Positions 20,027-39,892 are shown, numbered from the stretch's first letter. The stretch: DNA of 64,000 bases from Kiritimatiellia bacterium (GCA_016296065.1 JAEDKA010000002.1:39493-103492), one strand, 5' to 3'. Notes: generated by a model not told the origin, from the letters alone. A program made the numbers and translations.

Positions 20027-20027
20027 A

Positions 20028-20780: not shown

Positions 20781-20781
20781 G

Positions 20782-21321
20782 ATGACATACGAAACTATAA
20801 TGGCTGGCTTCGGCGGACAGGGGCTCCTGTTCTCCGGAAAGGTCCTCGCGCATGCGGCTCTCATCGAGAACAAGGAGCTTTCGTGGCTTCCGTCGTACGG
20901 ACCCGAGATGCGCGGCGGAACGTGCAACTGCTCCGTGATCGTCTCCGACGAGCCCGTGGGCTCTCCGATCATCGCGCACCCGAACGTGCTCATGGTGATG
21001 AACGAGCCGTCCCTCGACAAGTTCGAGGACACCGTCGCGCCCGGCGGGACGATCTTCGTCGACTCCGCGCTCATCGGACGCAAGGTGCGCCGCACCGACG
21101 TCGACGTCGTATACATCCCGGCGACGCAGATGGCGAAGGACATGGACGCTCTCTCGCTCGCGAACATGATCATCCTCGGCGCGATCGTCGAGAAGCTCCG
21201 CTGCGTCAATCCCGACACGATCGAGACTGCGCTCCGCGAGACGATATCCGCCCGCAAGGCGAACCTCCTCGACCTCAACCTCAAGGCGGTCGCGGCGGGA
21301 CGCGCGTTCATCCGCGGCTGA
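20782..21321 (+). CDS. korC: 2-oxoacid:ferredoxin oxidoreductase gamma subunit
   Basis: KorC/PorC-like; translationally coupled with korB. Confidence 0.85.
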   Translation: MTYETIMAGFGGQGLLFSGKVLAHAALIENKELSWLPSYGPEMRGGTCNCSVIVSDEPVGSPIIAHPNVLMVMNEPSLDKFEDTVAPGGTIFVDSALIGRKVRRTDVDVVYIPATQMAKDMDALSLANMIILGAIVEKLRCVNPDTIETALRETISARKANLLDLNLKAVAAGRAFIRG

Positions 21322-21406: not shown

Positions 21407-21484
<78 letters not shown>

Positions 21485-21830: not shown

Positions 21831-21901
21831 AAAATCCGTGGGTGCGGAGGGAAAAAAATTTAACAAACCCCCTTGTGGCTAAAAAGGCAATATGATATAA
21901 T

Positions 21902-21916
21902 GTGTCTCGTCAACAC
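21902..21916. promoter_or_regulatory. GTGT-N7-ACAC palindrome abutting the -10 of the Nudix gene (NrtR-type operator core)
   Basis: gatataat then GTGTctcgtcaACAC; the NrtR family is described as binding palindromes with a GT-N7-AC core. Confidence 0.4.
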
Positions 21917-21946: not shown

Positions 21947-22819
21947 ATGAAGCGCACGGCAGATGACATGAAGAAGATCGCGGAATACCGCAAGACGCTC
22001 GGCAAGTATCCGAAGCCGAGCGTCACGGCCGACATCATCGCCGTGCGCCCTGCCTACAGCGAGCTTGAGGAGAGCCAGTGGCGGGAAAATCCGGAGTTCG
22101 CGCTCGAGGTGCTGTTCATCAGGCGCGGGCAATGGCCGTACGAGGGAAGCTGGGCGCTTCCCGGCGGATTCATCCGTCCGACGGAGTCCGTTGACGAGGG
22201 CGCGCGGCGCGAGCTGCGCGAGGAGACGGCCCTTGAGTCCGAGCACCTCATCCCCGTCGGCGTCTTTTCAAAGCCCGACCGCGACATGAGGGCGTGGGTC
22301 ATCTCCAACGCGTTCGTGTCCGTGCATAGACGCGGACAGGGCTGCCACGTGAAGGGCGGCGACGATGCGGCGTCCGCCAAGTGGCTCACGCTGAAATTGC
22401 CGACTGTCGGGGATGGCAGGTTCCATCTTCCGTTCTACGACGGCGTGAAGCAGGCCTTCTGCCTTTCCGGCACCTACCGCGAGGAGGACCTCGGCGGCGG
22501 AACGGTTCTCTCCGTTGAAAAGAATCCGCTCGCGTTCGACCATGCGGAGATCATCGCGCAGGCGTTCCTGCGGATGCTCTCGTTCGACACGAAGAAGCTC
22601 GTGTTCTTCTTCCTGCCGGAGAAGTTCACGCTCTCCAACTACATCGACGTCTACCAGTACCTCACGCGCTACTCCGTAAGCCCGGCCAACATCCCGAGCT
22701 TCCGTCGCCAGCTCACCGCGACGAAGGAGCCGCTTCTTGAGGTGTGCGAGGGCGAGTGGGAGGACCTCGGCGGACGCGCCCACGCCCCGGCTAAGTTGTA
22801 CAGAAGGAGAAATGATTAA
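21947..22819 (+). CDS. Nudix hydrolase / Nudix-related transcriptional regulator (NrtR family)
   Basis: Nudix box GFIRPTESVDEGARRELREETAL plus a C-terminal region with LAFDHAEII, FTLSNY and FRRQL motifs typical of the NrtR winged-helix domain. Confidence 0.7.
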   Translation: MKRTADDMKKIAEYRKTLGKYPKPSVTADIIAVRPAYSELEESQWRENPEFALEVLFIRRGQWPYEGSWALPGGFIRPTESVDEGARRELREETALESEHLIPVGVFSKPDRDMRAWVISNAFVSVHRRGQGCHVKGGDDAASAKWLTLKLPTVGDGRFHLPFYDGVKQAFCLSGTYREEDLGGGTVLSVEKNPLAFDHAEIIAQAFLRMLSFDTKKLVFFFLPEKFTLSNYIDVYQYLTRYSVSPANIPSFRRQLTATKEPLLEVCEGEWEDLGGRAHAPAKLYRRRND

Positions 22820-22890
22820 CAGCCGTTTGCCTAAAGGGCATCAACATTTCACAAACAAACATCATATAGCCAAAAAGGAAAGAAGAAAAA

Positions 22891-23757
22891 ATGAACAGAA
22901 ACAAGGCTAAGGGGATGCTGTGGGGACTGATCGTCGGCGACGCGTTCGGGAGCCCCATACAGTTCAGTGGCAAGGACAACCATCCGTGGATCACGGAGAT
23001 GGTGGCGTGTCCGGTGTTCAGGCTTCCGCCCGGCTACTGGACGGACGACGGCTCGATGGCCATGTGCATAATGGACTCATACGTCCGCAAGGGCGGCTAT
23101 GACCTGAAGGACATCGGCGACACGTTCGTGAAGTGGTTCATGGACGGATACCTTTCGTCAAAGGAAGGGGAGTCGTTTGACGTCGGCGGCGCGACGTGGT
23201 CCGCCTGCCAGCATATCGCGTTCGACCACAGATATGTCAATGGACGCGAAGACGGGCAGGGCAACGGATCCATCATGCGCTTCGCGCCGTCGTACCTTCT
23301 CGCGCAGAAGGAGGGCGACCCCGCGAAGGCGATGCACGAGATCAGCGACCTCACGCACAGCTCGAGCAGGATTCGCGAGGTCGTGGATCGCTTCGCAAAG
23401 GTGCTGGACGAGCACATGGCGGGCAATCGCACATCGGAGGCATCGCCTTACAAGACTCGCGCGGCGGTGAACAACTCCGGATGGGCGGTCTCGACGCTTG
23501 ACGCCGCGCTCTGGGCGTTCAACACGACGCAATCCTTCGAGGACGGTCTCATTGCCGCCGTCAACCTTGGCGGCGACTCTGACTCCATCGGTGCGGTCTT
23601 CGGGCAGATCGCCGGGGCATACTATGGCTTCGACGCGATCCCCGGGCGATGGGTGAAGGCGGTCAAGACATGGGAGAAGGTCGATTCCCTGATTGAGGGT
23701 TTTCTCGACGCAGTGGAATGTCGCTCCGCCGGCGACATAAAGGAGGGCGGCATTTAG
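22891..23757 (+). CDS. ADP-ribosylglycohydrolase (ARH/DraG/Tri1 family)
   Basis: GLIVGDAFGSP and GGDSDSIGAV motifs of the ARH family. Confidence 0.8.
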   Translation: MNRNKAKGMLWGLIVGDAFGSPIQFSGKDNHPWITEMVACPVFRLPPGYWTDDGSMAMCIMDSYVRKGGYDLKDIGDTFVKWFMDGYLSSKEGESFDVGGATWSACQHIAFDHRYVNGREDGQGNGSIMRFAPSYLLAQKEGDPAKAMHEISDLTHSSSRIREVVDRFAKVLDEHMAGNRTSEASPYKTRAAVNNSGWAVSTLDAALWAFNTTQSFEDGLIAAVNLGGDSDSIGAVFGQIAGAYYGFDAIPGRWVKAVKTWEKVDSLIEGFLDAVECRSAGDIKEGGI

Positions 23758-23798
23758 TAGAATTGGCGGCGTAAACCAAACAGGAAAGGAACACGCTG

Positions 23799-24836
23799 AT
23801 GAAATTCACCGAGAAGACGATCGAGGAAGCGACGAGCAAGATGTGCGAGGACTCGTTCTGGTCCGAAGTGTACGAGAACGCGCCCGAAGGCGCGAAGAAA
23901 CGTCTGCGCGTCGCGTTCTGGGGCAATGCGCACATGCGCGAGAGGGAGGATCTTGACGCATACCGCATTGAGCGCGAGCGCATCGAGCGCGAGGAGATGA
24001 CGTACGAGGACGCCATGTATCTCGCGCGGCGCTTCCCCGAGGGCGCGGGGAAGACGCACTACGCGGAGCTCGCCGAGCGCATTGCGCGGCGTCCGATGAT
24101 GACGGACGCAAAGCTCGACGCGGCGATCGACGCGCTCGCCGCGATGCTTCCGGCGGAGGACCGCGCGCTCGTCGCGGCGAGCAGGGAGCGCTACGACCGC
24201 TGCGAGGACGGATTCTTCACGAAGGAACTGTTCTGGAAGGCCGTCGGAGGAGACGGCGATTCATGCGGACTCGTCGGCGACTGCTTCGCGCACGGACACG
24301 GGGTGGATCCGGACCCGGAGCTTGCGCTCTACTGGTTCCGCCGCGGCGCGTTCGGAGGAGACGCCGACTGCTGTCTCCATCTCGCATATATCCACGAGGA
24401 CGAGGAGTCGGGGCATTTCGACATGCCGGCGGCGGTGTTCTGGATGATGGAGGCGCTGCGGCGCGGAGATGCCGACGCCAAGCGCAACTTCGGCTACCGG
24501 CTTGCGCTTGGGGACGGTCCGTGGGAGAGATACAGGAATCCGAAGGCGGGCGTCGCTCTCATAACGGAGGCGACGCAGGACGATCCGCACGGGTACGCCT
24601 ACTACAACCTCGCGCTATGCTTTGAGCGCGGCGCGGGCGTCGAACGGAACATGGAAAGGGCGCTGGAGCTGTACATGGAGGCGAGGCGGCGCGGACACTA
24701 CGCGGCGGACGATGCAATCAGCCGCATAGAGACCCAGATGGCCGCGGCGGACGAGGGTGCGGAGCGGAAGCCTGCCCGCAGGGTGCCGGCGAAGAAGCCA
24801 GCGAAGAGGAAAAAAGGAAAGGGGACGCGGAAATGA
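23799..24836 (+). CDS. Sel1-repeat protein
   Basis: multiple Sel1-like repeats (A..YNLALCFERGAGVERNMERALELY); lysine-rich tail; upstream promoter TTTAGTAGAATTGGCGGCGTAAAC resembles the island cassette but lacks the palindrome. Confidence 0.7.
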   Translation: MKFTEKTIEEATSKMCEDSFWSEVYENAPEGAKKRLRVAFWGNAHMREREDLDAYRIERERIEREEMTYEDAMYLARRFPEGAGKTHYAELAERIARRPMMTDAKLDAAIDALAAMLPAEDRALVAASRERYDRCEDGFFTKELFWKAVGGDGDSCGLVGDCFAHGHGVDPDPELALYWFRRGAFGGDADCCLHLAYIHEDEESGHFDMPAAVFWMMEALRRGDADAKRNFGYRLALGDGPWERYRNPKAGVALITEATQDDPHGYAYYNLALCFERGAGVERNMERALELYMEARRRGHYAADDAISRIETQMAAADEGAERKPARRVPAKKPAKRKKGKGTRK

Positions 24837-25399
24837 ACACAAGGATCGAAACCGACCTGATGATGGACGACATGCTCTCCAGGATCCTGGAAGACGTCAG
24901 GAACCGATATCCTACGGCCCTCTCCGAGCCAGAGGAGAATCCGCCTCCCGCGCCGCCGCTCCGTGCGGAGGATGCGGTGGACGCAATCGGATGGGACGGC
25001 GCGGACGAGTTCAAGCTGGCCGATTCCTTTCCGCGCACCCTCGCGCGCATGCTGCGCGAGAAGGGGCTCACCGGGCCCAAGGTCTACAACAAGATCGGGA
25101 TGGACAGGAAGGAGTTCTCCAAGATTGCAAGCATCGCGGAGACGAAGACGCCGATCAAGGGAGAGGTGCTCGCCCTTGCTGTCGGCATGGGCCTTTCGCC
25201 GGCCGAGGCGAGGGAGCTCATGGCGAGCGCGGGATTCGCGTTTTCGCTTTCCAGCAAGGTAGACAACATCATCATGTACTTCCTGCAGAATGGCGAGAAG
25301 GACATCGTCAAGATCGACGCCGCCCTCTGGAAGCAGGCGAACACGTCGGTCAACACGATCCTGCAGCGGCGGAAGGGCTCCGCGCGCTCGGCGCGGTAG
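24833..25399 (+). CDS. hypothetical protein with HTH-like segment, start overlaps the Sel1 gene stop
   Basis: ATGA start/stop overlap; LARMLREKGLTGPKVYNKIGMDRKEFSKI resembles an XRE-type HTH. Confidence 0.5.
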   Translation: MNTRIETDLMMDDMLSRILEDVRNRYPTALSEPEENPPPAPPLRAEDAVDAIGWDGADEFKLADSFPRTLARMLREKGLTGPKVYNKIGMDRKEFSKIASIAETKTPIKGEVLALAVGMGLSPAEARELMASAGFAFSLSSKVDNIIMYFLQNGEKDIVKIDAALWKQANTSVNTILQRRKGSARSAR

Positions 25400-25792
25400 C
25401 GCCCGAACCGTCAATTGGTGGCAGCCTGTCGACCGAAACGCTCCGGGATGTTTCGCGAAGGTCTCCCAAACCGTCGGGTCTTGGCGTCGCGACGGCTTCC
25501 GCGCTTCCAACAACAAGCTGCGCTTAGCCTGCCATGCCTCGGCGTCTATCACTGGTTGCGTATGATACGCCTCCTACGCCTGCGAGCCAAGACCACTCCT
25601 CTTGTGAGACCTTCGCCTCCACACCCCTCCGCTTGAATTCACCACTATTTCCCAGCCACGTCGGGCCACCAATTTCCTCTCGTGCGCCCCCGCGCCTCAT
25701 GCGCTCCGCTTGAATTCATGGCTTTGCTCGCTTGTGAATCAGACATGAACGGCTACGCTTCGTTGGTTATGCGATTGCGAGGCGAGCTATGA

Positions 25793-25821
25793 CTGGGGGA
25801 AGCGGCGTCTCGCCGCTTCTG
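25793..25821. repeat. REP-like hairpin GACTGGGGGAAGCGGCGTCTCGCCGCTTC (second copy at 11774)
   Basis: identical 29-mer at two loci; 9-bp perfect stem. Confidence 0.45.
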
Positions 25822-26452
25822 GCACTCTGCGCCTCTGCGTTAAACATGAAACATCAAACTTCAAACATCAAACATCTGTACGCTCTACACGGCTAAACCT
25901 CAACCTCCCGATTTTCACAATGCCAACACGGGAGGGTCCAAATATGCTATACAACAAGTAATCGCAAACCAAGGAGACCCAAAGGAATCGACCTGAAACC
26001 ATCGCCAAGCCGACCGTGCGCGAGGTGATGGAGGAGTTCACTCGAATCCCGCTCATCGACGGCAAGACGTTCTGGGAGCTGGAGAACGAACTCGAGTGGG
26101 TGTAGCGGCATCTCCCGGCACTCTCATTTATATGCGGCAAATCCGCCGCTTGCAAAAGTAAACGTGGGTTTGAAAAGGTAAACGTTGGTTTGGTATCGTG
26201 AAGTACGGTTACATTTTCAAAAGTGGTCGCCATGCACGTGCCTGGCGTGCAAAAGCGCGGCCTGAGAGGCGGCTGCGCGGCGTTTGCGCACGCTTGGCCG
26301 GGATTTGCTACAATAGCCTCCCCTACCCACGACGCCTGGAAAGTTTCCGGCTTGCCGACTGGCGTCAAGGGAACATCCCCATGGAGGGGCTGGGCCTCCC
26401 GACGGAGGCTCAGTTTATTTCTCGTGCTTCAGTGCCTTTTTCGTTCTGTCCT

Positions 26453-27595
26453 TCATTTCACGCCGTTCCGCCTGAGGATGATGCGGTCGGCGTGGCGCTT
26501 GAACTTCTTGCCGAGCACGTACGGGTCGAGCGTCACCTCGTTCGCGGGGACCTTCACGATGCCGAGGCGGTCGAGGAGCCGGCGGCCTTCGTAGCCGTAG
26601 GCCTTCGCGAACTTGTCGTATGGCGTGGAGCCTTCGAGCGAGGCGCGCGTGTAGCTGTTGACGTGCGAGAGCGCGACGTTGACGTCGTCCTGTCCCAGCG
26701 AGTTGAAGCTCGTGCCCTTGATGAGGATGCGCCTGAGCTCCTCGTGGTTCCGCTCGACATGGGGCTTCTGCGTCGCGCAGTACGGGTCGCAGTAGAAGAC
26801 CCTCGTGCGGGGGATCAGCCGGTACGGGTTGTTGTCCGCGCGGGCGTTCTCGGTCATGACCGGGTCGGAGAACGGCGCTCCGTTGTCCTCGAGGATCGCG
26901 GGGAAGAGCTTCATGAACAGCGGCCTTCCTGCGGTGCGGTAGAGCATGTTCACGATGCCGGTCCACGTCTGGGCGGTCTCGCGCTCCTTGAGGAATGCCA
27001 TCATGAGCTGGCAGGGGAACTGGATCGTGAAGAGCACGCATCCGCCTACCTGGCCCTTGAGCGTGTCGGCTTCCGGCACGAGTGCCCCGGGGTTCTGCTC
27101 CTTCCAGAGGACGAAGAGGTCGTGCGTCCTGTTGACGCGGCACTTTGCGTCGGTCTTCGTCGCGGCCTGCTTCGGGCGGGGCCTGCGGGAGCATGCGTAG
27201 GGGAGGTCTCCGCGCCCGACGTCGAGGGCGTCCAGCCCGTCCGACCCGATGTAGCTGTAGACGGTCCTTTCGCTGAGCCCCCCGAAAGCGTCCGCGTTCG
27301 ACGCCATGATGTGGCGGACGGACTGCTTGCTGAGGAGCCCGTCCTTCAGTGCGGCGTTCATCTTCGCAAGAGTCTCGTCCGAGGCGTGGACGTGGCTGCG
27401 CGAGACGCGCAGCTTCGACTCGCGGTCGGCCTGGGCGACCCTGGCGACGTAGAACTTCTTCGGCAGGTGGCAGATGCGCTCGTTCGTGCATCCGTTGCAG
27501 ACGAAGGGCGGTGCGACGAGCCTGTCGCACGTGCGCGCCTCGTAGTCCCTGCACTGGAGGAAGCACTGGTGGCAGTTCTTGCACCACTTGTCCAT
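26453..27595 (-). CDS. IS30-family transposase, DDE catalytic part (Cys-rich N-terminus)
   Basis: CDPYCATQKPHVERNHEELRR matches the IS30 catalytic motif (DPY..WQ.G..EN.N); 380 aa. Confidence 0.75.
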   Translation of the reverse strand: MDKWCKNCHQCFLQCRDYEARTCDRLVAPPFVCNGCTNERICHLPKKFYVARVAQADRESKLRVSRSHVHASDETLAKMNAALKDGLLSKQSVRHIMASNADAFGGLSERTVYSYIGSDGLDALDVGRGDLPYACSRRPRPKQAATKTDAKCRVNRTHDLFVLWKEQNPGALVPEADTLKGQVGGCVLFTIQFPCQLMMAFLKERETAQTWTGIVNMLYRTAGRPLFMKLFPAILEDNGAPFSDPVMTENARADNNPYRLIPRTRVFYCDPYCATQKPHVERNHEELRRILIKGTSFNSLGQDDVNVALSHVNSYTRASLEGSTPYDKFAKAYGYEGRRLLDRLGIVKVPANEVTLDPYVLGKKFKRHADRIILRRNGVK

Positions 27596-27632
27596 GCCGC
27601 AGTTGGTGTCGCAGACGTGCGTGCGCCTGCAT

Positions 27633-27821
27633 TCACCGTACCACCTGACACGTCGAGTTCGTCTCCTTGAAGCCCTTGTTCGAGTCGACCCTCCTGTTCT
27701 TGATCTCGTTTGTTATGGTCTGTGGCGGCCTCTTCACGTAGGCTGCGATCTCGGGGATCGTCCACCCGCGCTTGAGCCCATCCTCTATTCCTTCCCGTTC
27801 GACTATGGTCATCTGTGCCAT
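27633..27821 (-). CDS. IS30-family transposase N-terminal HTH ORF; reading frame differs from the DDE ORF (frameshifted or disrupted)
   Basis: TIVEREGIEDGLKRGWTIPEIAAYVKRPPQTITNEIKNRR matches the IS30 HTH_38; 37-nt gap and a +1 frame offset to the downstream ORF. Confidence 0.6.
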   Translation of the reverse strand: MAQMTIVEREGIEDGLKRGWTIPEIAAYVKRPPQTITNEIKNRRVDSNKGFKETNSTCQVVR

Positions 27822-27899
27822 GTCAGTATCCTTTCTGATGTGGGCATCCCAGTCTGGCGACATGCCCGGCCATCGTGCCAAGCCGGGAAGTATAGCGAA

Positions 27900-28082
27900 T
27901 TTGCAGAACTAAACGAGGGTCATCCCCAAGGGGATGATAGCTGGGAGATATTATGCTCTCCATCAATCATATGCAAGGAGAATCAATGTCCTTTGAAGAA
28001 CTAAACGTTTCCAAAAACCATGTTTACTTTTCAAACCACAGACAGCTCTTTACAAAGGTGGGGATATTCCAGGTCTCACATC
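27900..28082 (+). mobile_element. IS4-family element terminal remnant
   Basis: shares ccaaaaacc…caaaggtggggatattccag with the tail of the IS4-type transposase fragment at 42540-42597. Confidence 0.4.
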
Positions 28083-28331
28083 AGCCGCGATTTTTGCTAT
28101 AATATTGTGCAGACGGTACAAGAAGATCTTGCTGTCGTCTCAGACCAGCTTCCGAAAACTACGACATTCTGAAGTTGCCAATAAACGGTTTGCGAGGTGC
28201 AACACATTTGGATGCGCCTTGTCGTGTGTTTATTGGCGGCTGTCGTAGGCCTTCGGAAGATGCACGGCATGGCGTGTCCTTTATATAAACTTAAAGGACG
28301 CGTCCTCTCGGGTGCGTTGGAAAGTCATAAG

Positions 28332-29291
28332 ATGGACAAGATGCAACCAGATGCGTCGAAAATTTCGATAGACGACAACCTTGCTAAGATTAAGTTGTTC
28401 TTGCGTGAGGTCATTCTAGAACCACGCAGGAAAATGCATAAATGGTCTATAATAACAAATCAAACGCCAAATCTTAAGATTGGGTATCCTGGACAACATC
28501 TTGCATCCCTAATTCTTGGAATGAAGGGGACAGGTACTGGTGCTCGAGGAGACGACATCGTTGACGGAACTGAAGTTAAGTCTTGCAGCCGTATCGATCA
28601 ACTTGATAAATGCAAGAAATGCAACGGCAACGTGTTGCGATCACAGAAAAATTGTCCAACATGTGGGTCTTCGGAAATCAAGCGGAACGATGATTCTAAG
28701 TGGTTGATAGCTATTCGAAGTGAAAGTGAACTTGAAATGTATCTTCGTAGAATTCCGAGGATGTTACTTATCATTTCTGATTATCCCGGCTTTGATTACA
28801 ACGACTTCTCATCCATGCGAATTAGAGCATACGAAATCTGGAACCAGTCATCCAGGGCGGCTGGTTTTCGTAATATTCTTACCCACTACTTTAATAACAT
28901 CTTTCTTGAGCATATCAAGAAGAACCCCAAGGCTACTCCTGCCCCTTACAATTTTTGGCCGGACTCTTTCGCATTTTACATGTGTAACCCGATCAAGATC
29001 TTTGAATCAATAATTACCGACATTGACGGCGACGATCCTGGAATTTCAATAACGCACTACATTGAGCCAAACAGGGATCGTAGTTCTCTCGCAAGCGAAT
29101 CAATGCCATCGTCCCTCCTTGTAGAGGAGGAAAAAGAATGCCTTCGTGCTAAGGGTGTTGATTTCTGCGTGGACGGTACAATTGATGAAACAATGAGAGT
29201 CTTTTTGCCGATACGCCTTGGCAAAGCGGTTTCTCACATGCGAAAATACCAGCGCAAGACAGGGCGTTCGACTTCACCCAAGCGGAAGTAG
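28332..29291 (+). CDS. putative Type II restriction endonuclease (PD-(D/E)XK-like)
   Basis: low-GC gene convergent with, and overlapping the 3' end of, the methyltransferase; GDDIVDGTEVKS resembles D…E.K; start moved to MDKMQ at 28332. Confidence 0.5.
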   Translation: MDKMQPDASKISIDDNLAKIKLFLREVILEPRRKMHKWSIITNQTPNLKIGYPGQHLASLILGMKGTGTGARGDDIVDGTEVKSCSRIDQLDKCKKCNGNVLRSQKNCPTCGSSEIKRNDDSKWLIAIRSESELEMYLRRIPRMLLIISDYPGFDYNDFSSMRIRAYEIWNQSSRAAGFRNILTHYFNNIFLEHIKKNPKATPAPYNFWPDSFAFYMCNPIKIFESIITDIDGDDPGISITHYIEPNRDRSSLASESMPSSLLVEEEKECLRAKGVDFCVDGTIDETMRVFLPIRLGKAVSHMRKYQRKTGRSTSPKRK

Positions 29292-30452
29292 ATCAGTTAC
29301 TTCGCTCGAATAGCGCTTTTTAATTGCCTTAATATATTGCTCGTCCATCTCAATTGTGAACGACTCACGATTGAGATGCTCAGCTGAAATCATTGTGGCT
29401 CCACTTCCGCCAAAAGGGTCAAGTACTTTGTCGCCAGGATTAGACGATGCCTTGATAAGGCGTTCAATCAATTTAATAGGTTTCTGGGTTGGGTGATATC
29501 GCTTCTCGCTATAAAAATCAATATCGGTCCACACGTCGCTATACCCCATTAAAGGATTGAAAGTCTGAACGATTTTATCGTAGGGGAAATTGAAATCAAG
29601 AATATCTTGAAGTTTGGCCCAGATTTCTCTGGTTGGGAATTGTTCACAAATATTCTTTCCTGTGTATATTGACCACATTCCTCCGCCATTTGACTTAACA
29701 CCTAGACGTTCATTAATTTCTTTTGATGTCAGCCCAAGTGCCTTTTGTCGCTCTTTTAGCAAATTTCTGGAGAATTCAATGTTGCTCTTTGTCAAGAATA
29801 AGATACTCTCTGTAACGCACGGGAACATCTTGTAGTTCTTGGTTGCTCTGCCCGCAACGGCTTTTATCCCCTTGTCAACTATTATCTGCTGGCGAAGGGA
29901 GAAGCCAATGTCTCGTAATGTTGGCAAGAGCAGGGCAAGCATCCTGAAATATCCAAAGAGATAGAAGGTTCCACCAATGCGCAATTTTTTATATACATCT
30001 GTCATCCACTGCTTCGACCATTCAATATAATCTTCTTCTGTCCTCCATTGGTAATCCCATTTTTCTCCAATCACTTTCCAATATGGAGGATCGGCGATAA
30101 CTAGATCCATTGTGGGAATTTCTTTACACTTCAAGACTTTAAGGCAATCTCCTGCATAAAGAGTGTGGCGACCTAACCTTGAAGTATGAAGTTCAAATGG
30201 CGACGAATCGTTGATAGATGGAGAGGCAATAGAGATTTGCTGATCTTTTTTAAGACGTGTACGCTTGCTATGAATGGTTTGATCGCTTTGTGTATCTTGT
30301 TTGATAGCATTGTCAGCGATAACTAGCTCTGGCAATGTGCTTGCAACACCCAATGCTACATTCTTGCAAAATGACCTTCTGCTGAGACTTTTATTTCCCG
30401 AAGGCCCGATTCGTTTATTGCTTTTAATTGTTTCTAGATTTGAATTAGACAT
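29274..30452 (-). CDS. DNA methyltransferase, beta-class N6-adenine/N4-cytosine (DPPY before FGGSG)
   Basis: IADPPYW (motif IV) followed by DPFGGSGAT (motif I); low GC. Confidence 0.85.
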   Translation of the reverse strand: MSNSNLETIKSNKRIGPSGNKSLSRRSFCKNVALGVASTLPELVIADNAIKQDTQSDQTIHSKRTRLKKDQQISIASPSINDSSPFELHTSRLGRHTLYAGDCLKVLKCKEIPTMDLVIADPPYWKVIGEKWDYQWRTEEDYIEWSKQWMTDVYKKLRIGGTFYLFGYFRMLALLLPTLRDIGFSLRQQIIVDKGIKAVAGRATKNYKMFPCVTESILFLTKSNIEFSRNLLKERQKALGLTSKEINERLGVKSNGGGMWSIYTGKNICEQFPTREIWAKLQDILDFNFPYDKIVQTFNPLMGYSDVWTDIDFYSEKRYHPTQKPIKLIERLIKASSNPGDKVLDPFGGSGATMISAEHLNRESFTIEMDEQYIKAIKKRYSSEVTDLLPLG

Positions 30453-30473
30453 GCTAAGACCTTGTTTGAGCTA

Positions 30474-30674
30474 CTATTTTACGATGTCAACAATGTCTCC
30501 AATATTGCAATTCATTACCGTGCATATACGCTTAAGAACGGACATGCTTACATCGTCTCCGCGCGTCATTTTCGCAATGGTAAATGATGATATGCCGGTC
30601 GCATGTCGGAGATCGGTCTTGTTCATGTCCTTGTCAATTAGCAGCTTCCACAGCTTTTTATATGAAACACTCAT
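30474..30674 (-). CDS. HTH XRE-family controller (C) protein of the R-M system
   Basis: 66 aa; helix-turn-helix LRHATGISSFTIAKMTRGDDVSMSVLKRI; 21 bp upstream of the MTase on the same strand. Confidence 0.6.
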   Translation of the reverse strand: MSVSYKKLWKLLIDKDMNKTDLRHATGISSFTIAKMTRGDDVSMSVLKRICTVMNCNIGDIVDIVK

Positions 30675-30926
30675 TTGCTACTCTTGTCTTATGCATATAA
30701 GATGATTTGTGGTTATTATAACAAAAAAACGGCTGAATCACAATAGGGGTTGCAATCATTTCCAAATTTGATATTTGTACAAACTAATGCAATGTTTGGA
30801 GATGCTAACGTCTAGTTTGTATTGGGGGTCAGCGTTATTCTTCGCGAATCTCCGCGCATCCTTGAAGAACTTCTGTTTGATTCAATCACAAGTGCGACGA
30901 CATAAGATTTGGTATAATGCACAGCA

Positions 30927-31853
30927 ATGGTAAAAAGTTGGCTATCGGCAAGTGTTGCTATCGTGATTTGGGGCGTGACGTTCGCCTCGACGCGGGTGCT
31001 ACTGGAGGAGTTCTCGGCGCTTGAGATCAACATCGTGCGGTTCGCCCTTGCGTGGGTGGCGCTCGCATGCGCGGCAAAAGTGCCGCGGAAGGGCGGGGTG
31101 TGCGCGGCTCCGTGGTGGCTGTTCGCGGCGATGGGCTTCACGGGCGTGTTCGCCTACCAGTTCCTCGAGAACTGCGCGATCTACTATACGAACGCGAGCA
31201 ACGTCGCGATACTCGTCTCGTTCGGGCCGGTCGTTACGGCCATAATGGCGCGGGCGCTGACAGCAGACCGCTCGCTTTCGCCGCGGCTCATCTTCGGGTC
31301 GCTAGTGGCGGTTGTTGGCGTCGCGTTCGTCGCACTGAACGGCGTCGTCAACTTTCAGCTGCGTCCGCTTGGCGACGCGATGGCGCTCTGCGCGATGGTA
31401 AGTTGGGGCATCTACTCCGTCCTCATCGAGAAGGCGAACCGACTTGGCGTGGAGCCGATTGTAGCCGTCAGGAAGTCGTTCGGCTGGGCGCTACTTATGA
31501 TGCTTCCGTTGGCTGTTTGGGGCGTTACGCCTTCCGGATTTGTCGCGCTCGATGGATCGTATTCCGTCACTATTGACGCCGACGCGAACCTTGACCGCTT
31601 TGCCTCGTTCTGGAATTGGGTCAACCTGGGCTTTCTCGGCGTTCTGGCGTCCGCTGCATGCTTCGTCCTCTGGAGTCGCGCGTGCAGGGTCATCGGCATG
31701 GTGCGGACAACGATTGGCCTTTATCTCACGCCAGTTGTCGGCGTGGCTTTTGCGGCGTTGTTCCTGAAGGAGCGGCTTACTTGGCTTTCGGTCGCCGGCG
31801 GAGTTCTTATTCTCGGCGGCGTGGCGATCGCGAACATGAGAAGGGAGGCGTAG
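30927..31853 (+). CDS. EamA/DMT-family transporter
   Basis: ten predicted TM segments; two EamA-like halves; promoter gatttggtataatgc. Confidence 0.8.
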   Translation: MVKSWLSASVAIVIWGVTFASTRVLLEEFSALEINIVRFALAWVALACAAKVPRKGGVCAAPWWLFAAMGFTGVFAYQFLENCAIYYTNASNVAILVSFGPVVTAIMARALTADRSLSPRLIFGSLVAVVGVAFVALNGVVNFQLRPLGDAMALCAMVSWGIYSVLIEKANRLGVEPIVAVRKSFGWALLMMLPLAVWGVTPSGFVALDGSYSVTIDADANLDRFASFWNWVNLGFLGVLASAACFVLWSRACRVIGMVRTTIGLYLTPVVGVAFAALFLKERLTWLSVAGGVLILGGVAIANMRREA

Positions 31854-31855
31854 AA

Positions 31856-32170
31856 ATGAGAGGCGTGATATTCCTGATGGCGTTTACGGTCGCGTTGTCT
31901 GCGTGCGCGGGAGACGAGACAAAGGTCGTCTTGTCTACGAACGACGTCGCTGCGGTGGTGCAGCGCGTCCAGTGCCATTCCGTCACGAAGTCCGGCAACA
32001 GGTGCAAGCGCAAGGCGGCGCCCGGCAAGCTCTATTGCCGCCAGCACGCAGCGCAGTCGTCTGCGGCGAAGCCGGCGGAGACTTGTGCCTACATTTCCGA
32101 CGACGGGAAGCGCTGTGCGGCGTCTGCCGCTTCTGGCAGCCGATTCTGCGCCAAGCACCAGGACAAGTGA
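31856..32170 (+). CDS. small lipoprotein with duplicated Cys/His zinc-ribbon-like motif
   Basis: lipobox LSAC; two repeats C-x(8,9)-C-x10-C-x2-H. Confidence 0.5.
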   Translation: MRGVIFLMAFTVALSACAGDETKVVLSTNDVAAVVQRVQCHSVTKSGNRCKRKAAPGKLYCRQHAAQSSAAKPAETCAYISDDGKRCAASAASGSRFCAKHQDK

Positions 32171-32309
32171 CCGCGGCAAAAGTGCCGTGGAAGCGATGAA
32201 AATTCTCCGCCCAGTTTTAGATTCGATTTGGTACAATATTTCTTGTCAGGAGGGGTGTGTGGCAGAAGATCGTCCACAAAAGTGAAACAATGTTGGTGGA
32301 GTAGCGGAA

Positions 32310-32450
32310 ATGGCGATGCCGCAGAGAGACGATACAATAGAGGCGATCAAGCGATTGGACGCGTTACTTGAGTATGCCGTCATGCATGGTGACGCGGCAG
32401 AGGCCGAGCGCATCCGCGCGGAGCTTCGCAAATTGACGGACGATATCTGA
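32310..32450 (+). CDS. small hypothetical protein (46 aa)
   Basis: ORF below the ORF-track size cutoff; RBS gagtagcggaa; promoter gatttggtacaatat at 32228. Confidence 0.25.
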   Translation: MAMPQRDDTIEAIKRLDALLEYAVMHGDAAEAERIRAELRKLTDDI

Positions 32451-32476
32451 TCTCCGCGGCGGAAGTGCCGCGCATT

Positions 32477-32532
32477 TTGTCGCTCGGCTGGCGACATGGG
32501 GCGGGGCGGGATTTGGTAGAATAGGCGGCGAA
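32477..32532 (+). promoter_or_regulatory. island promoter-operator cassette A (palindrome TTGTCGCTCGGCTGGCGACA + G-rich spacer + TTTGGTAGAATAGGCGGCGAAA)
   Basis: one of six near-identical cassettes; -10 TAGAAT at 32516; the right half-site overlaps a -35-like TGGCGACA. Confidence 0.6.
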
Positions 32533-32559
32533 ATATCAATGACAGGAAAGGAGAAGAGC

Positions 32560-33915
32560 ATGACGGCATACTTTGAAATTCGAACATCCGACGGCAATCA
32601 ATATGTCTGGCCGGAACCGCTCGGAGACAAGGGCGAGGCGCGGCTTGTAATAGAGAAGGTCGGCCACTCGGTGGAATGCGGGCTGCTGTTTGCGTACACA
32701 GACAACTATCCGTACATTGACCTTGAGTTTAACTCTGGCACTGTCCACTATGTCATAAATCATCGGCATTCGCGTCTCTATTGGGATGGATGCGTATGGG
32801 CGCGCAATTCTATAGAAGATGTCCGCTACTCACTGCCTGACCGCGTGCGGCTTTGTGTCAATGGCCGATATTTTCAGGATGTTGACTATGAGGAATTTGC
32901 GCGGGTTGTTCGGAATACGAAATCCGGTTTCGGAGAGCCGCAATACAGGTGTTCCGTGGTGATAACCGATCCGAGAGTGCGCTTTTTGGCGCTAGCTTCC
33001 CTTGCCTATTTTGACGTCAATGGTGGAAGGGCGAAATGTGAGCTTTACAAGCGAATGAACCCGACTTGCCAGGAGGCATTGGCGGCATTGCGGAGGTTTG
33101 GCCTTGACGTTGGACTCGGTCCCAACAAGGCGGATGAGCGGACCGTGTACGGACATCTTGAAGATTTCAGTGCCGCAAGCATGAAGGAGACCCCGGCTCA
33201 AATTCTTGGTCGAACAATACCTCTTAGAGTTGAATGTGAAGGTCTTTTGGAGCCTGGTAATCTTGGGTCTGGCACTTTGACTTTGAGTCTCTCGAATGAA
33301 CAGACGGGTGTAGTGCTGCGAGGAGTTGAGATGGTTGGGGGAATCCGCAGGAATTATGCATTTAGAGTCCCGACAGAGTGGGCTCGGAAAAGTGTCGTGA
33401 ACATAATAGAGAAGATTTCGGTTTCACCCACGATGCCGGCAGATCGTGAGGGATGCACAAGCCAAAATGTCTTAAGGATATTCAAAGGAGACAGCGCGTT
33501 TTCGCTATCATGGGGTGGGGTTGTCGGTGGTACTTGGCATCCGCTTGTGCGAATGGCCAGGAAGCTCAGGCTCGTCTACGACATGCTGAAAGAGGATGCT
33601 GCAGAGGGTGTTGAAGAGTCCGATATACGCCTCATAGGCGAGTTTAAGATTGCGCATGCTCACGTGAAAGACCAGAATGAGGCGTTTGCGGTGTTCCCTG
33701 CGGGGAAGCGGGTATTTCTGCGTTGCGGTGAGGACGGGGCGAATGTAGTGTTCGTGCAGGGCAGTGAAGATGGAGATGTTCTCGGTGAGGTTCCTACCGT
33801 GTTTGGCGATGTTCACAGCGCACTGCTAAACGGTTGTCACAGTGTCACTGCAAGAATCGAATCGCCATGCAGCCATCAGGGTAAACCTTCGGCTTGCGTT
33901 GTGGTTGTCGAGTGA
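32560..33915 (+). CDS. hypothetical protein (452 aa), cassette-driven
   Basis: RBS aggaaaggagaag; no recognisable domain by eye. Confidence 0.6.
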   Translation: MTAYFEIRTSDGNQYVWPEPLGDKGEARLVIEKVGHSVECGLLFAYTDNYPYIDLEFNSGTVHYVINHRHSRLYWDGCVWARNSIEDVRYSLPDRVRLCVNGRYFQDVDYEEFARVVRNTKSGFGEPQYRCSVVITDPRVRFLALASLAYFDVNGGRAKCELYKRMNPTCQEALAALRRFGLDVGLGPNKADERTVYGHLEDFSAASMKETPAQILGRTIPLRVECEGLLEPGNLGSGTLTLSLSNEQTGVVLRGVEMVGGIRRNYAFRVPTEWARKSVVNIIEKISVSPTMPADREGCTSQNVLRIFKGDSAFSLSWGGVVGGTWHPLVRMARKLRLVYDMLKEDAAEGVEESDIRLIGEFKIAHAHVKDQNEAFAVFPAGKRVFLRCGEDGANVVFVQGSEDGDVLGEVPTVFGDVHSALLNGCHSVTARIESPCSHQGKPSACVVVVE

Positions 33916-34147
33916 TGAAATTCAACAGACCAAGGTACTTTGGCGATAATGGCCGGGGTTTGGTAGAATAGGCGGTGTATGGCGGAGTCCATGCCAGGGA
34001 TGGTTCTCGCAGCGCTGTTCCACGATTGCTGCAAGAGGGGGATGCCTGGCGATAGGGGATAATTGGGGGCCTGGCACGGGGTGTGCTAATAGTCTGGTGT
34101 GTGCGCGGCGGTTCGCGTGCGAAGGAAAACGAAAAGGAGGTTCGGCT

Positions 34148-35479
34148 ATGAGGCAGGTTAATGTTAAGATCGGTGACATCACCGAGGAAACGGTTGATGC
34201 AATTGTGAATGCGGCGAACCGCAGCATGCTTGGCGGCGGCGGGGTGGATGGCGCTATACACAGAGCAGCGGGGCCGCAGCTCAAGTCCGAATGTGAAAAG
34301 TATCCACCAGATGCGCATGGGTATCGTCTAAAGACAGGAGAGGCGAAGATTACGATTGGATGCAATCTTTCTGCGAAGTTCGTGATACATACGGCGGGGC
34401 CGGACTGCAGTGAGGTTCGTGATGCTGCTGAGCAGGATCGGCTGCTGACGGCATCGTGGCGCAACTCCCTTGCCATTGTCGCCGAGCGTGGATTGAAGTC
34501 CGTCGCGTTCCCGTCAATTTCGACCGGAATCTATGGTTTCCCTAAGGAACGGGCGGCAAAGATCGCCGCTGCCGAAGTAGCCAAGTTCCTCGCCGACTAT
34601 CCCGATGTCGAAGTGCGGATATGCCTGCTGGGTCACGATGCCGAGTCGACGAAACGGCTTTACGAGGATGCGTTTGCCCATTCAATGCCCACGTCATTTC
34701 CTACCATTTCCGTTTCCAGACGAGCCCGGTTCCCGGATGAACTTTCATACGATGTCATTGCAGGTGAGTTTAGGCAGACAGCGAACGGTGCAACGTGTCC
34801 GCGTCATGGGTATATCGATGGCGTTCACTACATTGCGAAGTGCGAGACATTCCAGCAGTTGGTGAATCGCCCCAAGACCACTTCGGAAAAACATGTTCAC
34901 AACGAGTTCGTCGCGGACGGGGTGATTCGCGGCATGGGGTTTAATGTCCCGGAGAGTAGAGAGTATAGGACGCGAGAGAATAGAGTGCTCGTTCGCCTTG
35001 CCAAGTTCATCGCGCCAACGAGTCCTCTCTGCAATGCCTGGAATGCTGCAGATAGTGAAGCGAAAGAAGCGATACGTCGACAGGTGGTTGCGGCATATCC
35101 ACTTCTGCATCTGATTGCCGGATTTGATACGTTCCAGAACGACAATGTCATTGTAACAGAGGATGGGAAACTGTGGTTTGTTGACAACGGTGCATCGTTT
35201 GGGTGGAGCGCTATGGGAGCGTACGACAAGTACTACAAATACAGTGGGAGAACAGATCCAGACGATTCCCAATATGGCTTTCTTTCGTTGCGTAATCATC
35301 CAGGGCAAAAGTTGCTTCAGAGAGTTCTGTCGGGTGTAGCGGATGCGGAACTGTGGGCTGGGGCGGCTAAGCTTGACGTCGACAGGTTCGTCTCGCTGCT
35401 TCCTGCAGACGAATATGACGTATCATCCATTCGCACCTATGCAGAGACTCTCGTAAGAGAGGCAAAAAAGCATTGTTGA
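34148..35479 (+). CDS. MacroD-type macro domain fused to a C-terminal PI3K/PI4K-like (atypical kinase-like) domain
   Basis: N-terminus: VDAIVNAAN, GGGGVDGAIHRAAGP, VIHTAGP, AFPSISTGIYGFP (MacroD catalytic motifs). C-terminus: LIAGFDTFQNDNVIVTEDGKLWFVDNGASFG aligns with the PI3K catalytic and activation loops (GDRHxxN…DFG). Confidence 0.75.
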   Translation: MRQVNVKIGDITEETVDAIVNAANRSMLGGGGVDGAIHRAAGPQLKSECEKYPPDAHGYRLKTGEAKITIGCNLSAKFVIHTAGPDCSEVRDAAEQDRLLTASWRNSLAIVAERGLKSVAFPSISTGIYGFPKERAAKIAAAEVAKFLADYPDVEVRICLLGHDAESTKRLYEDAFAHSMPTSFPTISVSRRARFPDELSYDVIAGEFRQTANGATCPRHGYIDGVHYIAKCETFQQLVNRPKTTSEKHVHNEFVADGVIRGMGFNVPESREYRTRENRVLVRLAKFIAPTSPLCNAWNAADSEAKEAIRRQVVAAYPLLHLIAGFDTFQNDNVIVTEDGKLWFVDNGASFGWSAMGAYDKYYKYSGRTDPDDSQYGFLSLRNHPGQKLLQRVLSGVADAELWAGAAKLDVDRFVSLLPADEYDVSSIRTYAETLVREAKKHC

Positions 35480-35658
35480 TTGAATGATGTATGTTGTTCC
35501 ACTGGCGAGATGTGGAAGGGTCGACCACCGGCCGGCCAGGATTGTGGCGCGCTCAGTGATCGCGCAACGGCGTGGCACAATGAGGTGGAGCTTCCAGCTC
35601 CTCCCGTCCGGGCACGTGGCGCGGCGAGACGCCGCACCTCCTTGTCTGTCGCATGAAA

Positions 35659-35714
35659 TGTCGCTCCGCTTGCGACATGGGGTGCGGCGGGATTTGGTAG
35701 AATAGGCGGTGAAA
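35659..35714 (+). promoter_or_regulatory. island promoter-operator cassette C
   Basis: TGTCGCTCCGCTTGCGACA + tggggtgcggcgggat + TTGGTAGAATAGGCGGTGAAAG; 15 nt upstream of the CYTH gene ATG. Confidence 0.6.
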
Positions 35715-35728
35715 GAAAGGAGAGTCAG

Positions 35729-36205
35729 ATGGCGCTTGAGATAGAGAGGAAGTTCCTTGTGAAGGGCGACGGATGGCGCGGGCTGGCGCAGCCGGAGCTG
35801 ATGAAGCAGGGGTATGTGCCGACCGAGAACCACGTGACGGTGCGAGTGCGGACGGCCGGGGTGAAGGCGTGGATAACGTTGAAGACGCCCGCGAAGAATC
35901 TCGTCCGTCAGGAGTTCGAGTACGAGATTCCGATCGCGGACGCGGAGGCCATGCTGAAGTCGATGTGCGGAAATGTCGTGGAGAAGAAGCGATACAGGAT
36001 TCCGGCTGCGGAGCACAGGCTCGCCTGGGAAGTCGACGAGTTCCTCGGCGCAAACGCGCCGCTCGTCACGGCGGAGATTGAGCTGCCAAGCGCGGAGTTT
36101 GCCGTCCAGCTGCCGGAATGGGTTGGCCGCGAGGTCACAGAGGAAAACCGCTTTAAGAACAACCGCCTAGCGGAGCGGCCTTATTCGGCTTGGTCGAATG
36201 TCTGA
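35729..36205 (+). CDS. CYTH-domain protein (CyaB/ThTPase triphosphate-tunnel family)
   Basis: N-terminal EIERKFLV motif diagnostic of CYTH; 158 aa. Confidence 0.75.
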   Translation: MALEIERKFLVKGDGWRGLAQPELMKQGYVPTENHVTVRVRTAGVKAWITLKTPAKNLVRQEFEYEIPIADAEAMLKSMCGNVVEKKRYRIPAAEHRLAWEVDEFLGANAPLVTAEIELPSAEFAVQLPEWVGREVTEENRFKNNRLAERPYSAWSNV

Positions 36206-36291
36206 AATTTCGCTTTGGCGGCGCGGAGATCTGAGTCTCCTGGCAATTGGAGCCTACGAGCAGATTTTCTCCGCGCGCCTTTTTCTTGCAC

Positions 36292-36350
36292 TTGTCGCTC
36301 CGTTGGCGACATGGGGTGGGATGGGTTTTGGTAGAATAGGCGGCGAAAAG
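36292..36350 (+). promoter_or_regulatory. island promoter-operator cassette D (orphan: no ORF downstream)
   Basis: TGTCGCTCCGTTGGCGACA + tggggtgggatgggtt + TTGGTAGAATAGGCGGCGAAAAG. Confidence 0.6.
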
Positions 36351-36445
36351 AGTCGAAAACGAGTAGCCTTTTCGCGGGTGTAATCCGTCACTTCGACTGC
36401 CCCCGAGTGCGAACCGCCATGCGGTCGGGGGCTTTCTATTTGGCG
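36343..36445 (+). ncRNA. candidate ~100-nt small RNA transcribed from cassette D and ended by an intrinsic terminator
   Basis: predicted TSS after TAGAAT; internal hairpin GCGAAAAG…CTTTTCGC; terminator GCCCCCGAGTG…TCGGGGGC + TTTCTATTT at 36398-36445; longest ORF is 20 aa. Confidence 0.35.
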
Positions 36446-36752: not shown

Positions 36753-36961
36753 GTTGCGTTCCCTTCGAGGCTGCGAACTCTTCTCGGGTGAAGCGCGGAT
36801 GCCTCAGTTCGCCAGTCTCAAGCCCGCGCATCACCGCCTTCAGCTTTTCCTGGTTCACGTTGGGTAGTGTAGCATTTTTCCCTTGAGCAGTCAACGAGTG
36901 CAGGGCGGTTTTCCGGGCTTCGCGTTCATTTCTTCGGAAACTACGATAGCGGGTCGGGAAA

Positions 36962-37020
36962 TGTCGCTCCGCTGGCGACATGGGGAAGGATGGGGTTTGG
37001 TAGAATAGGCGGCGAAAGGA
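36962..37020 (+). promoter_or_regulatory. island promoter-operator cassette E
   Basis: TGTCGCTCCGCTGGCGACA + tggggaaggatggggt + TTGGTAGAATAGGCGGCGAAAGG. Confidence 0.6.
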
Positions 37021-37033
37021 AAGGACTGAAAAC

Positions 37034-37699: not shown

Positions 37700-37806
37700 A
37701 CGATGGTAATTCTTTTTGCATTCGCCACGAGCGGAAAGGCTTCCGCCGGGTGCCGCCGATACGGCATGACTGATTGGGGAACGGCCGCCCCCAGGCGAAT
37801 GCATTT

Positions 37807-37865
37807 TGTCGCTCCGCCGGCGACAAGGAGATGGACGGGGTGTGGTAGAATTTGCGGTGGAAAGA
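37807..37865 (+). promoter_or_regulatory. island promoter-operator cassette F
   Basis: TGTCGCTCCGCCGGCGACA + aggagatggacggggtg + TGGTAGAATTTGCGGTGGAAAG. Confidence 0.55.
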
Positions 37866-37877
37866 TGAGGTCTTGGC

Positions 37878-38357: not shown

Positions 38358-38362
38358 GGAAA

Positions 38363-38420: not shown

Positions 38421-38440
38421 CAAAACGAAAGGAGATTGGC

Positions 38441-39891: not shown

Positions 39892-39892
39892 A

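Follow-up and report, generated by a model that had tools for sequence, protein, structure and literature searches.

A Nudix–winged-helix regulator and an ADP-ribosylhydrolase form a conserved gene pair in Kiritimatiellia and probably the core of an ADP-ribosylation-reversal system

In a stretch of 64,000 nt from a Kiritimatiellia bacterium (GCA_016296065.1, JAEDKA010000002.1:39493-103492), hereafter the window, a gene for an NrtR-family protein with a Nudix and a winged-helix domain is followed directly by a gene for a DraG/Tri1-type ADP-ribosylhydrolase (ARH, also termed ARG). The window was read as one strand, and all coordinates are counted within it. We consider it probable that these two genes form the conserved core of an ADP-ribosylation-reversal system of the "ARG-centric" class, which is known from computational prediction only (Iyer, Burroughs, Anantharaman and Aravind 2022, Viruses 14:1977, section 3.8; PMC9503650). 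Systems of this class join an ARG without a coupled transferase to a Nudix–helix-turn-helix (HTH) or WYL repressor, with accessories that include phosphatases (among them alarmone-type HD enzymes), vWA and other chaperones, Macro or NADAR proteins, restriction-type effectors and a HIRAN-linked ARPP. They have been proposed to undo ADP-ribosylation by phage enzymes, with the released ADP-ribose as inducer (PMC9503650). An earlier, sequence-only reading of the window had placed the pair and a MacroD-type macro domain protein in a single island devoted to reversing or sensing ADP-ribosylation. Comparative genomics and the published prediction (PMC9503650) both favour the tie of these genes to ADP-ribosylation, but not one contiguous ADP-ribose island, as 10.4 kb of mobile and other genes lie between the pair and the macro gene.

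The pairing was assessed in 31 informative loci from Kiritimatiellia with unrelated flanks and with Nudix proteins 66–88% identical to that of the window. In 24 of these 31 loci, the Nudix gene has an ARH gene downstream of it (3 truncated, 1 fragments only), and the two genes are a conserved pair. The slot between them is filled only by ADP-ribose-related domains and by a kinase domain, hereafter X. Homologues of X, 39–46% identical to the X of the window, occupy it in 12 loci, and a microbial PARG does so in eight. X is found alone in L009, L014, L019, L022 and L024, and fused to other domains in L017 (HD_4::X), L026 (PARG::X), L032 (PARG::HD_4::X) and L025 (X::vWA). In L023 (10516-12774), X and ARH share a single open reading frame (ORF) without a stop after a PARG gene, which may encode a kinase::ARH fusion protein.

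Further domains recur around the pair: HD_4 in L017 and L032, vWA in L025 and L006, and His_Phos_1 in L001 and L004. Orthologues (59% identity) of the CYTH-domain protein whose gene adjoins the macro-kinase gene in the window are encoded beside Nudix-ARH in L004/L005 and L030, and a DnaJ-like and HIRAN pair, also present in the window, is kept approximately 7 kb downstream of Nudix-ARH in L006. In the window, the macro protein is encoded outside the Nudix-ARH operon, yet it falls within the same recurring repertoire of partner domains, because X homologues sit in the Nudix-ARH slot and because the CYTH gene and the DnaJ/HIRAN pair recur. A separate observation concerns L004 (1-8870), where an RNA-repair operon (RtcR - Ro60/vWA - RtcA - RtcB), a CYTH gene and a gene for a histidine phosphatase immediately precede Nudix-ARH. 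This arrangement hints that RNA-end repair is tied to ADP-ribose processing.

Pfam searches retrieved a NUDIX domain (PF00293, E 6.9e-13) in the upstream protein of the pair. Its Nudix box, G74-x5-E80-x7-R88-E89-L90-x-E92-E93, is intact and invariant across 17 orthologues, in agreement with the NrtR-like Nudix protein proposed earlier, and the protein also carries LAFDH and FRRQ...PAKLY motifs. The winged-helix profile PF21906 (NrtR_WHD) scored 20.9 bits against the protein of the window, under its cut-off of 27, and is called in many orthologues. When the family profile was compared with PDB entries, 2FML matched over the Nudix domain and the greater part of the C-terminal region (E 1.9e-27); AraR and the Shewanella NrtR were matched as well. 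An AlphaFold2 (AF2) model (pLDDT 79.6) placed three helices at residues 215-221, 229-240 and 246-257, followed by a beta-hairpin at 264-287, and its top full-length Foldseek matches were 2FML, AraR (5BS6) and the NrtR–DNA complex 3GZ6. The C-terminal winged HTH that had been read from motifs alone is thus borne out in the modelled structure. By its modelled fold and the biology of its relatives, we assign the protein to the NrtR family. It is a predicted ADP-ribose-responsive repressor and possibly an ADP-ribose pyrophosphatase in addition.

The close homologues of this regulator all come from Kiritimatiellia genomes assembled out of gut and rumen metagenomes, and the exact protein had no record in the gene index searched. 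More distant homologues from Ruminococcus and other Clostridia (35–43% identity) head pncA-nadE-nadD-pncB operons, whose products are an isochorismatase/PncA, an NAD synthase, a NadD-like adenylyltransferase and a NAPRTase. Such an operon is the classical, textbook NrtR regulon. In Kiritimatiellia, a regulator of the classical NAD type seems to have been put to new use, because its Firmicutes homologues head operons of that type. The same homologues are what would commend ordinary NAD homeostasis as the role of the window's protein, that is, a classical NrtR acting on NAD salvage, with ARH and macro as unrelated housekeeping enzymes that lie nearby by chance. MacroD and ARH enzymes do also hydrolyse the O-acetyl-ADP-ribose produced by sirtuins (PMC9503650, PMC7050489). 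However, no NAD biosynthesis or salvage gene adjoins the Nudix gene in the window or in the Pfam-annotated Kiritimatiellia loci, and neither the retention of the ARH pairing nor the restricted content of the Nudix-ARH slot fits chance proximity, so that we regard this explanation as very improbable.

The regulator would be expected to act at its own promoter, which we compared across 33 distinct orthologous upstream regions. The conserved pattern reads in full CTTGTGGC-N7-GCAAT-ATGATATAAT-N5-CCGTCAAC. The sequence-only reading had pointed instead to a GTGT-N7-ACAC palindrome abutting the -10. This palindrome (GTGTCTCGTCAACAC) does exist at 21902-21916 on the plus strand, directly 3' of the TATAAT at 21896-21901, but its role as an operator did not survive: 0.41 copies are expected per window, at least one copy was present in 33 of 100 shuffles, and it was found upstream of none of the Kiritimatiellia Nudix orthologues (0 of 33 distinct regions). 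Only the central CGTCAAC of the palindrome region is conserved. We therefore rejected GTGT-N7-ACAC as the operator, given its chance-level frequency and its absence from all 33 orthologous promoters.

A better candidate is probably the surroundings of GCAAT-ATGATATAAT. GCAAT, at 21887-21891 just 5' of the -10, is nearly exclusive to Nudix promoters; GCAAT[AG]TGATA occurs in 21 of the 33 Nudix upstream regions, matches 30 times in approximately 515 kb of locus sequence and has a single match in the window. As a side observation, ATGATATAAT recurs in the window (18713-18728, 21886-21901, 44855-44870 on the minus strand and 45535-45550 on the minus strand), including before the 2-oxoacid:ferredoxin oxidoreductase (POR) operon and the aldo-keto reductase and radical SAM genes, and its copies at 18713, 44855 and 45535 lack a preceding GCAAT. 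By itself, ATGATATAAT is probably a general extended -10, the signature of strong housekeeping promoters in this lineage. In the Firmicutes/Treponema-type loci (L037-L086; Ruminococcus, Clostridia and Treponema), AT-rich dyads, such as TATCA-N3-TGATA or ATGATATTATCAT, lie over the promoter of many of the Firmicutes homologues. Those before the pncA-nadE-nadD-pncB operons are candidate NrtR boxes of that clade; an exact TATCA-N3-TGATA is present in just 6 of 48 Firmicutes promoters.

The downstream protein of the pair starts 71 nt past the end of the Nudix gene and matches PF03747 (Pfam, E 8e-54), so that an ARH right behind the Nudix gene, as read earlier, is upheld. Its nearest solved relatives are Thermus thermophilus TTHA1508 (2CWC), Tri1 (6DRE, the second-best PDB match) and DraG. 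In alignments to Tri1, DraG and TTHA1508, the motifs T51-D52-D53, D97 and G227-G-D-S-D-S232 are intact. At the Glu-flap position (Glu41 in ARH3, Glu28 in DraG), the window has Gln24 (GSPIQF), as do all 21 orthologues from Kiritimatiellia. DraG depends crucially on Asp97 and is little affected by mutation of Glu28, whereas the Glu-flap Glu is essential in ARH3 (PMC7050489). We consider the ARH probably active despite its clade-specific Gln24, as judged from these residues. The expectation that neither ARH nor macro has degenerate catalytic residues thus holds for the macro motifs and for TDD, Asp97 and GGDSDS of the ARH, but not for its Glu-flap.

The best NCBIfam match of the ARH is Tri1 (E 7.6e-53), at 179.5 bits against a cut-off of 490; the DraG equivalog scored 114 against a cut-off of 337. 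The first approximately 66 residues of Tri1, its N-terminal extension, are absent from the ARH. The other end of the protein bears an observation of its own. Its final 12 codons (ECRSAGDIKEGGI; 23719-23757) come from the first copy of a repeated 64-nt cassette element, and the orthologues stop approximately 10 residues sooner; therefore, the cassette array abuts the ARH gene and has rewritten its 3' end.

The macro protein lies further along, as had been read, and starts at an ATG at 34148 preceded by an AAAAGGAGG ribosome-binding site. Its orthologues are 443 aa long. Residues 1-190 form a MacroD-type domain (PF01661, E 1.1e-39) whose NAAN...GGGGVDGAIH and STGIYGFP motifs are intact in alignment to the Oceanobacillus iheyensis MacroD (5L9K), and NF001664 scored 175.7 against a cut-off of 200, slightly below the equivalog level. 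The gene lies 10.4 kb past the ARH, beyond a Sel1 cassette, an IS30-like transposase, a MamI restriction pair, a transporter and a gene for a 458-aa protein. Its C-terminal 265 aa, overlooked in the earlier reading, are the domain X, and it is this predicted kinase that would truly connect the macro protein with Nudix-ARH.

Pfam gave no match to the X of the window up to E 1, HipA_C, HipA_2 and PI3_PI4_kinase included, and weak or indirect matches were obtained only in its relatives P0164, P0138 and P0216. Comparison of the X profile with PDB entries retrieved only the catalytic loops of PI3K (E 0.03). X defines a small family in which Lys53, His-x-His-Asn-Glu75, Asp149, Asp154-Asn155 and Asp168-Asn-Gly do not vary, and the Lys, Glu, Asp, Asn and Asp-Asn of the kinase type are also retained without exception over 49 distant representatives. 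The fold is CtkA/HipA/PI4K-like, with the beta3 Lys, the alphaC Glu, the catalytic Asp...Asn and the DFG-type Asp all present, and we predict from these features that X is an atypical kinase.

An exhaustive profile search for X returned 924 representatives. Among 49 nearer representatives, partner domains were Macro (6), PARG (2), HD_4 (2), Metallophos (1), vWA (1) and phage MuF/minor-capsid (4). Among 50 more distant ones, 22 carried phage domains (17 Phage_Mu_F and 5 minor capsid) and 8 carried NUDIX, and giant members of the family contain ADP-ribosyltransferase (ADPrib_exo_Tox), Nudix and PTP-type phosphatase domains. The top viral structure matches of X were phage polyvalent proteins named for ADP-ribosyltransferase (ART), Nudix, portal or head-morphogenesis domains; PHROGs searches with X and nine of its relatives gave no phage-family match to the kinase domain proper. 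Kinases of this kind in phage polyvalent proteins, and nearby small cassettes in Verrucomicrobium, were described by Iyer et al. 2017 (J Bacteriol 199:e00245-17; PMC5512222), and X resembles that family.

These relatives lend some weight to a reading in which the macro-kinase, the CYTH protein and the neighbouring cassettes are cargo or remnants of phages or mobile elements, serving offence or counter-defence (for example, by destroying host ADP-ribose-based immune signals or modifications) and functionally unrelated to Nudix-ARH. The island that holds them also adjoins a tRNA gene and contains insertion sequence (IS) elements and restriction-modification genes. However, the X homologues of the 12 loci above lie inside a chromosomal Nudix-ARH operon, neither X nor the regulator has a relative among the 2.9 million viral contigs of IMG/VR, and the window yielded neither an integrase nor an att repeat nor a phage structural gene. 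Such an unrelated origin and role strike us as unlikely.

Within the proposed reversal system, X could be a dedicated kinase of the ADP-ribose world, a tentative and rather doubtful suggestion that can take two forms. In the first, X would phosphorylate free or conjugated ADP-ribose, and macro, HD or calcineurin-type partners would process the phospho-ADP-ribose. In the second, X would be a HipA-like growth-arrest effector activated by the ADP-ribose-binding hydrolase domain fused to it. If true, a phosphorylation step would be added to bacterial ADP-ribosylation reversal, and two associations would be explained: the frequent coupling of phosphatases to ARG-centric systems, and the occurrence of the kinase in phage polyvalent proteins alongside ADP-ribosyltransferase and Nudix domains.

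The pair and the macro-kinase lie in a variable region of roughly 21.5-43.5 kb that is bounded by core genes on either side (Table 1). The GC content is approximately 62% across the window, with a low-GC patch of 43–55% at 28-36 kb, which reaches 43% over 28-30 kb at the MamI endonuclease/methylase pair. Housekeeping genes resume from approximately 43.8 kb with an aldo-keto reductase, a radical SAM enzyme, MutS and EF-G; MutS (49158-52286) has all five MutS domains and an additional C-terminal staphylococcal-nuclease (SNase) domain. No Pfam hit to ART, SIR2 or TIR was obtained among approximately 40 window ORFs scanned, several of which have no Pfam match, so that the absence of such domains is unproven. 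PADLOC, run on ten island proteins, called no known defence system and returned only weak Nudix, LmuB and PDC-M03B(HIRAN) matches.

Table 1. Features in and around the variable region, by position in the window
Feature	Position	Strand	Remarks
Core 2-oxoacid:ferredoxin oxidoreductase (POR/OFOR) operon	18962-21321		Upstream of tRNA-Pro; Pfam/NCBIfam
tRNA-Pro(TGG)	21407-21483	+	ARAGORN; left edge of variable region
Conserved Nudix-gene promoter	21872-21901	+	CTTGTGGC-N7-GCAAT-ATGATATAAT; in most of 33 distinct orthologous promoters
NrtR-family Nudix and winged-helix protein	21947-22819	+
DraG/Tri1-type ADP-ribosylhydrolase (ARH/ARG)	22891-23757	+
64-nt cassette element, copies	23715-23778, 32474-32537, 35655-35718, 36289-36352, 36958-37021, 37803-37866, 38359-38422	+
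Sel1-repeat protein	23799-24836	+	First cassette after ARH
188-aa protein, without family match	24833-25399	+	Same first cassette as Sel1 protein
IS30-like transposase	26453-27595	-
MamI restriction endonuclease	28197-29291	+
N6/N4 DNA methylase	29274-30452	-	Overlaps MamI gene tail-to-tail
EamA transporter	30927-31853
458-aa cassette protein	32539-33915	+	HIRAN-type via homologues
MacroD-type macro domain of fusion protein	34148-34720	+
Predicted atypical kinase domain X of same fusion protein	34721-35479	+
CYTH-domain protein	35729-36205	+
DnaJ-like protein and HIRAN protein pair	39046-40285	+	HIRAN gene at 39710-40285
Ankyrin::DDE_Tnp_1 chimeric ORF	41552-42481

Much of the variable region is organised as cassettes. 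The 64-nt element contains a perfect palindrome with 6-bp arms, TGTCGC-N7-GCGACA, followed approximately 20 nt later by TTTGGTAGAAT. Its seven copies (0.51 expected) each lie just 5' of a plus-strand cassette gene, and a copy of the -10 half only lies upstream of the macro-kinase gene, the eighth cassette, at 33951-33979. The close relative L087-L090 has the element too, and the other 86 loci all lack it. To judge from its make-up, it looks like the common promoter and operator of a cassette regulon. Integron-like immunity cassette arrays combine a shared promoter between genes with a recombinase of their own; the shared element is present here, but no recombinase or integrase was found between 21.4 and 44 kb, nor does the window hold a second copy of the tRNA-Pro 3' end that could serve as an att repeat.

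The IS30-like transposase and the MamI pair (26453-30452) are probably a recent insertion into the island. In addition, an exact 20-nt direct repeat, CAAAGGTGGGGATATTCCAG, is present at 28053-28072 and 42573-42592, the right copy coming after the ankyrin::DDE_Tnp_1 ORF. The 14.5 kb between the copies hold the restriction-modification pair, the EamA gene, the macro-kinase, the CYTH gene and the remaining cassettes, and the two copies may be the ends of an inserted element. In L087, a macro-kinase of 97% identity belongs to a cassette array that ends with CYTH and adjoins a type III-like restriction system. The 458-aa protein has no Pfam or PDB match; 4 of its 23 homologues (52–56% identical) carry a HIRAN domain, and for this reason the island is taken to hold several HIRAN-type genes (32539-33915 and 39710-40285). 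As a conserved partner of the macro-kinase, the 458-aa protein was rejected, being missing beside the 97%-identical macro-kinase in L087.

The cassettes and the Tri1 matches bear jointly on another explanation, namely immunity against interbacterial ADP-ribosyltransferase toxins, which the sequence-only reading had already suggested, with the ARH as a Tri1-like orphan immunity enzyme and the cassettes, among them Sel1, ankyrin and macro-kinase, as a stock of acquired immunity genes. Repeat proteins of the Sel1 and ankyrin kinds are frequent immunity-type proteins, seven cassettes share one promoter/operator element, Tri1 leads the NCBIfam matches of the ARH, and no transferase was found encoded nearby. 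Yet the ARH falls far short of the Tri1 cut-off and is without the N-terminal residues of Tri1, Nudix-ARH is a conserved regulated operon rather than a cassette, and the window showed neither a recombinase nor any type VI secretion gene. We hold this explanation to be somewhat unlikely. Its mechanism equals that of the ARG-centric system, from which it differs only in the source of the attacker.

From the domain identities, motifs, gene order and fusions computed here, we infer the biochemical and regulatory steps of the ARG-centric system as follows. The NrtR-family protein would repress its own Nudix-ARH operon via an operator in the promoter, probably around GCAAT-ATGATATAAT. Modification of host macromolecules by a foreign ADP-ribosyltransferase would lead basal ARH to free ADP-ribose, which would enter the Nudix pocket and lift repression. 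The induced ARH would then strip the modification, most likely arginine-linked ADP-ribose, and the intact Nudix box may let the regulator degrade ADP-ribose and so reset the switch. The MacroD-kinase fusion (34148-35479) would belong to such a system as a detached accessory module. Its macro domain may clear other linkages, such as those on acidic residues or nucleic-acid ends, O-acetyl-ADP-ribose or ADP-ribose-1''-phosphate, while the fused kinase might phosphorylate ADP-ribose or an ADP-ribosylated substrate, or serve as a HipA-like effector.

Several points weigh against this scheme. ARH is not near the Nudix gene in 7 of the 31 orthologous loci. The macro-kinase, 10.4 kb away, has its own promoter and mobile DNA in between, and its co-regulation with Nudix-ARH is conjectural. 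A mobile-element origin of the macro-kinase is conceivable, because the wider kinase family occurs mostly in phage MuF polyvalent proteins, and altered activity of the ARH is likewise conceivable, because the Glu-flap Glu, replaced by Gln throughout the clade, is essential in ARH3. No clear dyad was found in the conserved Nudix promoter, so that no palindromic operator is defined, and the partners typical of the ARG-centric class, namely phosphatases of the R-P, calcineurin-like, alarmone-type HD or HAD type and the peptide-binding chaperones vWA and TY-Chap, were not found in the window.

Together with its 30 sister loci, this locus offers a compact, testable version of systems that have only been predicted: a two-gene core, a strongly conserved promoter, a re-deployed NAD-type regulator and a modular slot for PARG, macro, HD or kinase domains. 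On the host side, the kinase has four different ADP-ribose or phosphate hydrolases as fusion partners; on the phage side, it accompanies transferase and Nudix domains, and its substrate could reveal a phosphorylation step in ADP-ribose conflicts.

Compared with the NrtR proteins of Shewanella (3GZ5/3GZ6), the AraR of Bacteroides (5BS6) and the Enterococcus structure 2FML, the regulator shares the Nudix fold, the C-terminal winged helix and the LAFDH and FRRQ/PA-LY motifs. Whereas its Firmicutes relatives govern NAD-salvage operons, the Kiritimatiellia clade is partnered with ARH, not with NAD genes, and retains a fully intact Nudix box. It also has an additional beta-rich insert at approximately residues 141-190; PF21906 stays below threshold for the window protein, and a palindromic NrtR box was not found. 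The ARH, in turn, has the fold of DraG and Tri1 and their TDD, Asp97 and GGD(S/T)D(S/T) metal and catalytic motifs, but it lies far under both equivalog cut-offs, does not have the Tri1 N-terminal extension, has a Glu-flap Gln in all orthologues and is encoded without a DraT or Tre1 partner beside it.

X has the same minimal kinase fold as the polyvalent-protein kinases, HipA, CtkA and PI4K, and its Lys, Glu, Asp, Asn and Asp residues are likewise intact. The X family is frequent in MuF/minor-capsid polyvalent proteins with ART and Nudix domains and is biased towards the Planctomycetes-Verrucomicrobia-Chlamydiae (PVC) lineage. Here, in contrast, X is chromosomal, either stand-alone or fused to ADP-ribose hydrolases, within a regulated ARH operon, and, unlike HipA, it has no HipB- or HipS-type partner.

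With respect to the ARG-centric class as a whole, a rhodanese-phosphatase partner, an ARPP and a restriction-type effector were not detected in the window, in which the macro-kinase is detached from the core, and Kiritimatiellia is absent from the lineages listed in PMC9503650. The recurrent kinase (fused to MacroD, PARG, HD, vWA and possibly ARH), PARG and CYTH do not appear in the text of PMC9503650. The class and the Kiritimatiellia loci nevertheless share an ARH/ARG core without a coupled transferase (none by Pfam in the window), a predicted Nudix-HTH (NrtR-like) negative regulator and accessory genes, with Macro and HIRAN-linked ones in the window and alarmone-type HD and vWA ones in sister loci only. 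They also share the swapping of accessories among close genomes, with Macro in the window and PARG, HD_4, X and vWA in sister loci whose Nudix proteins are 67–88% identical.

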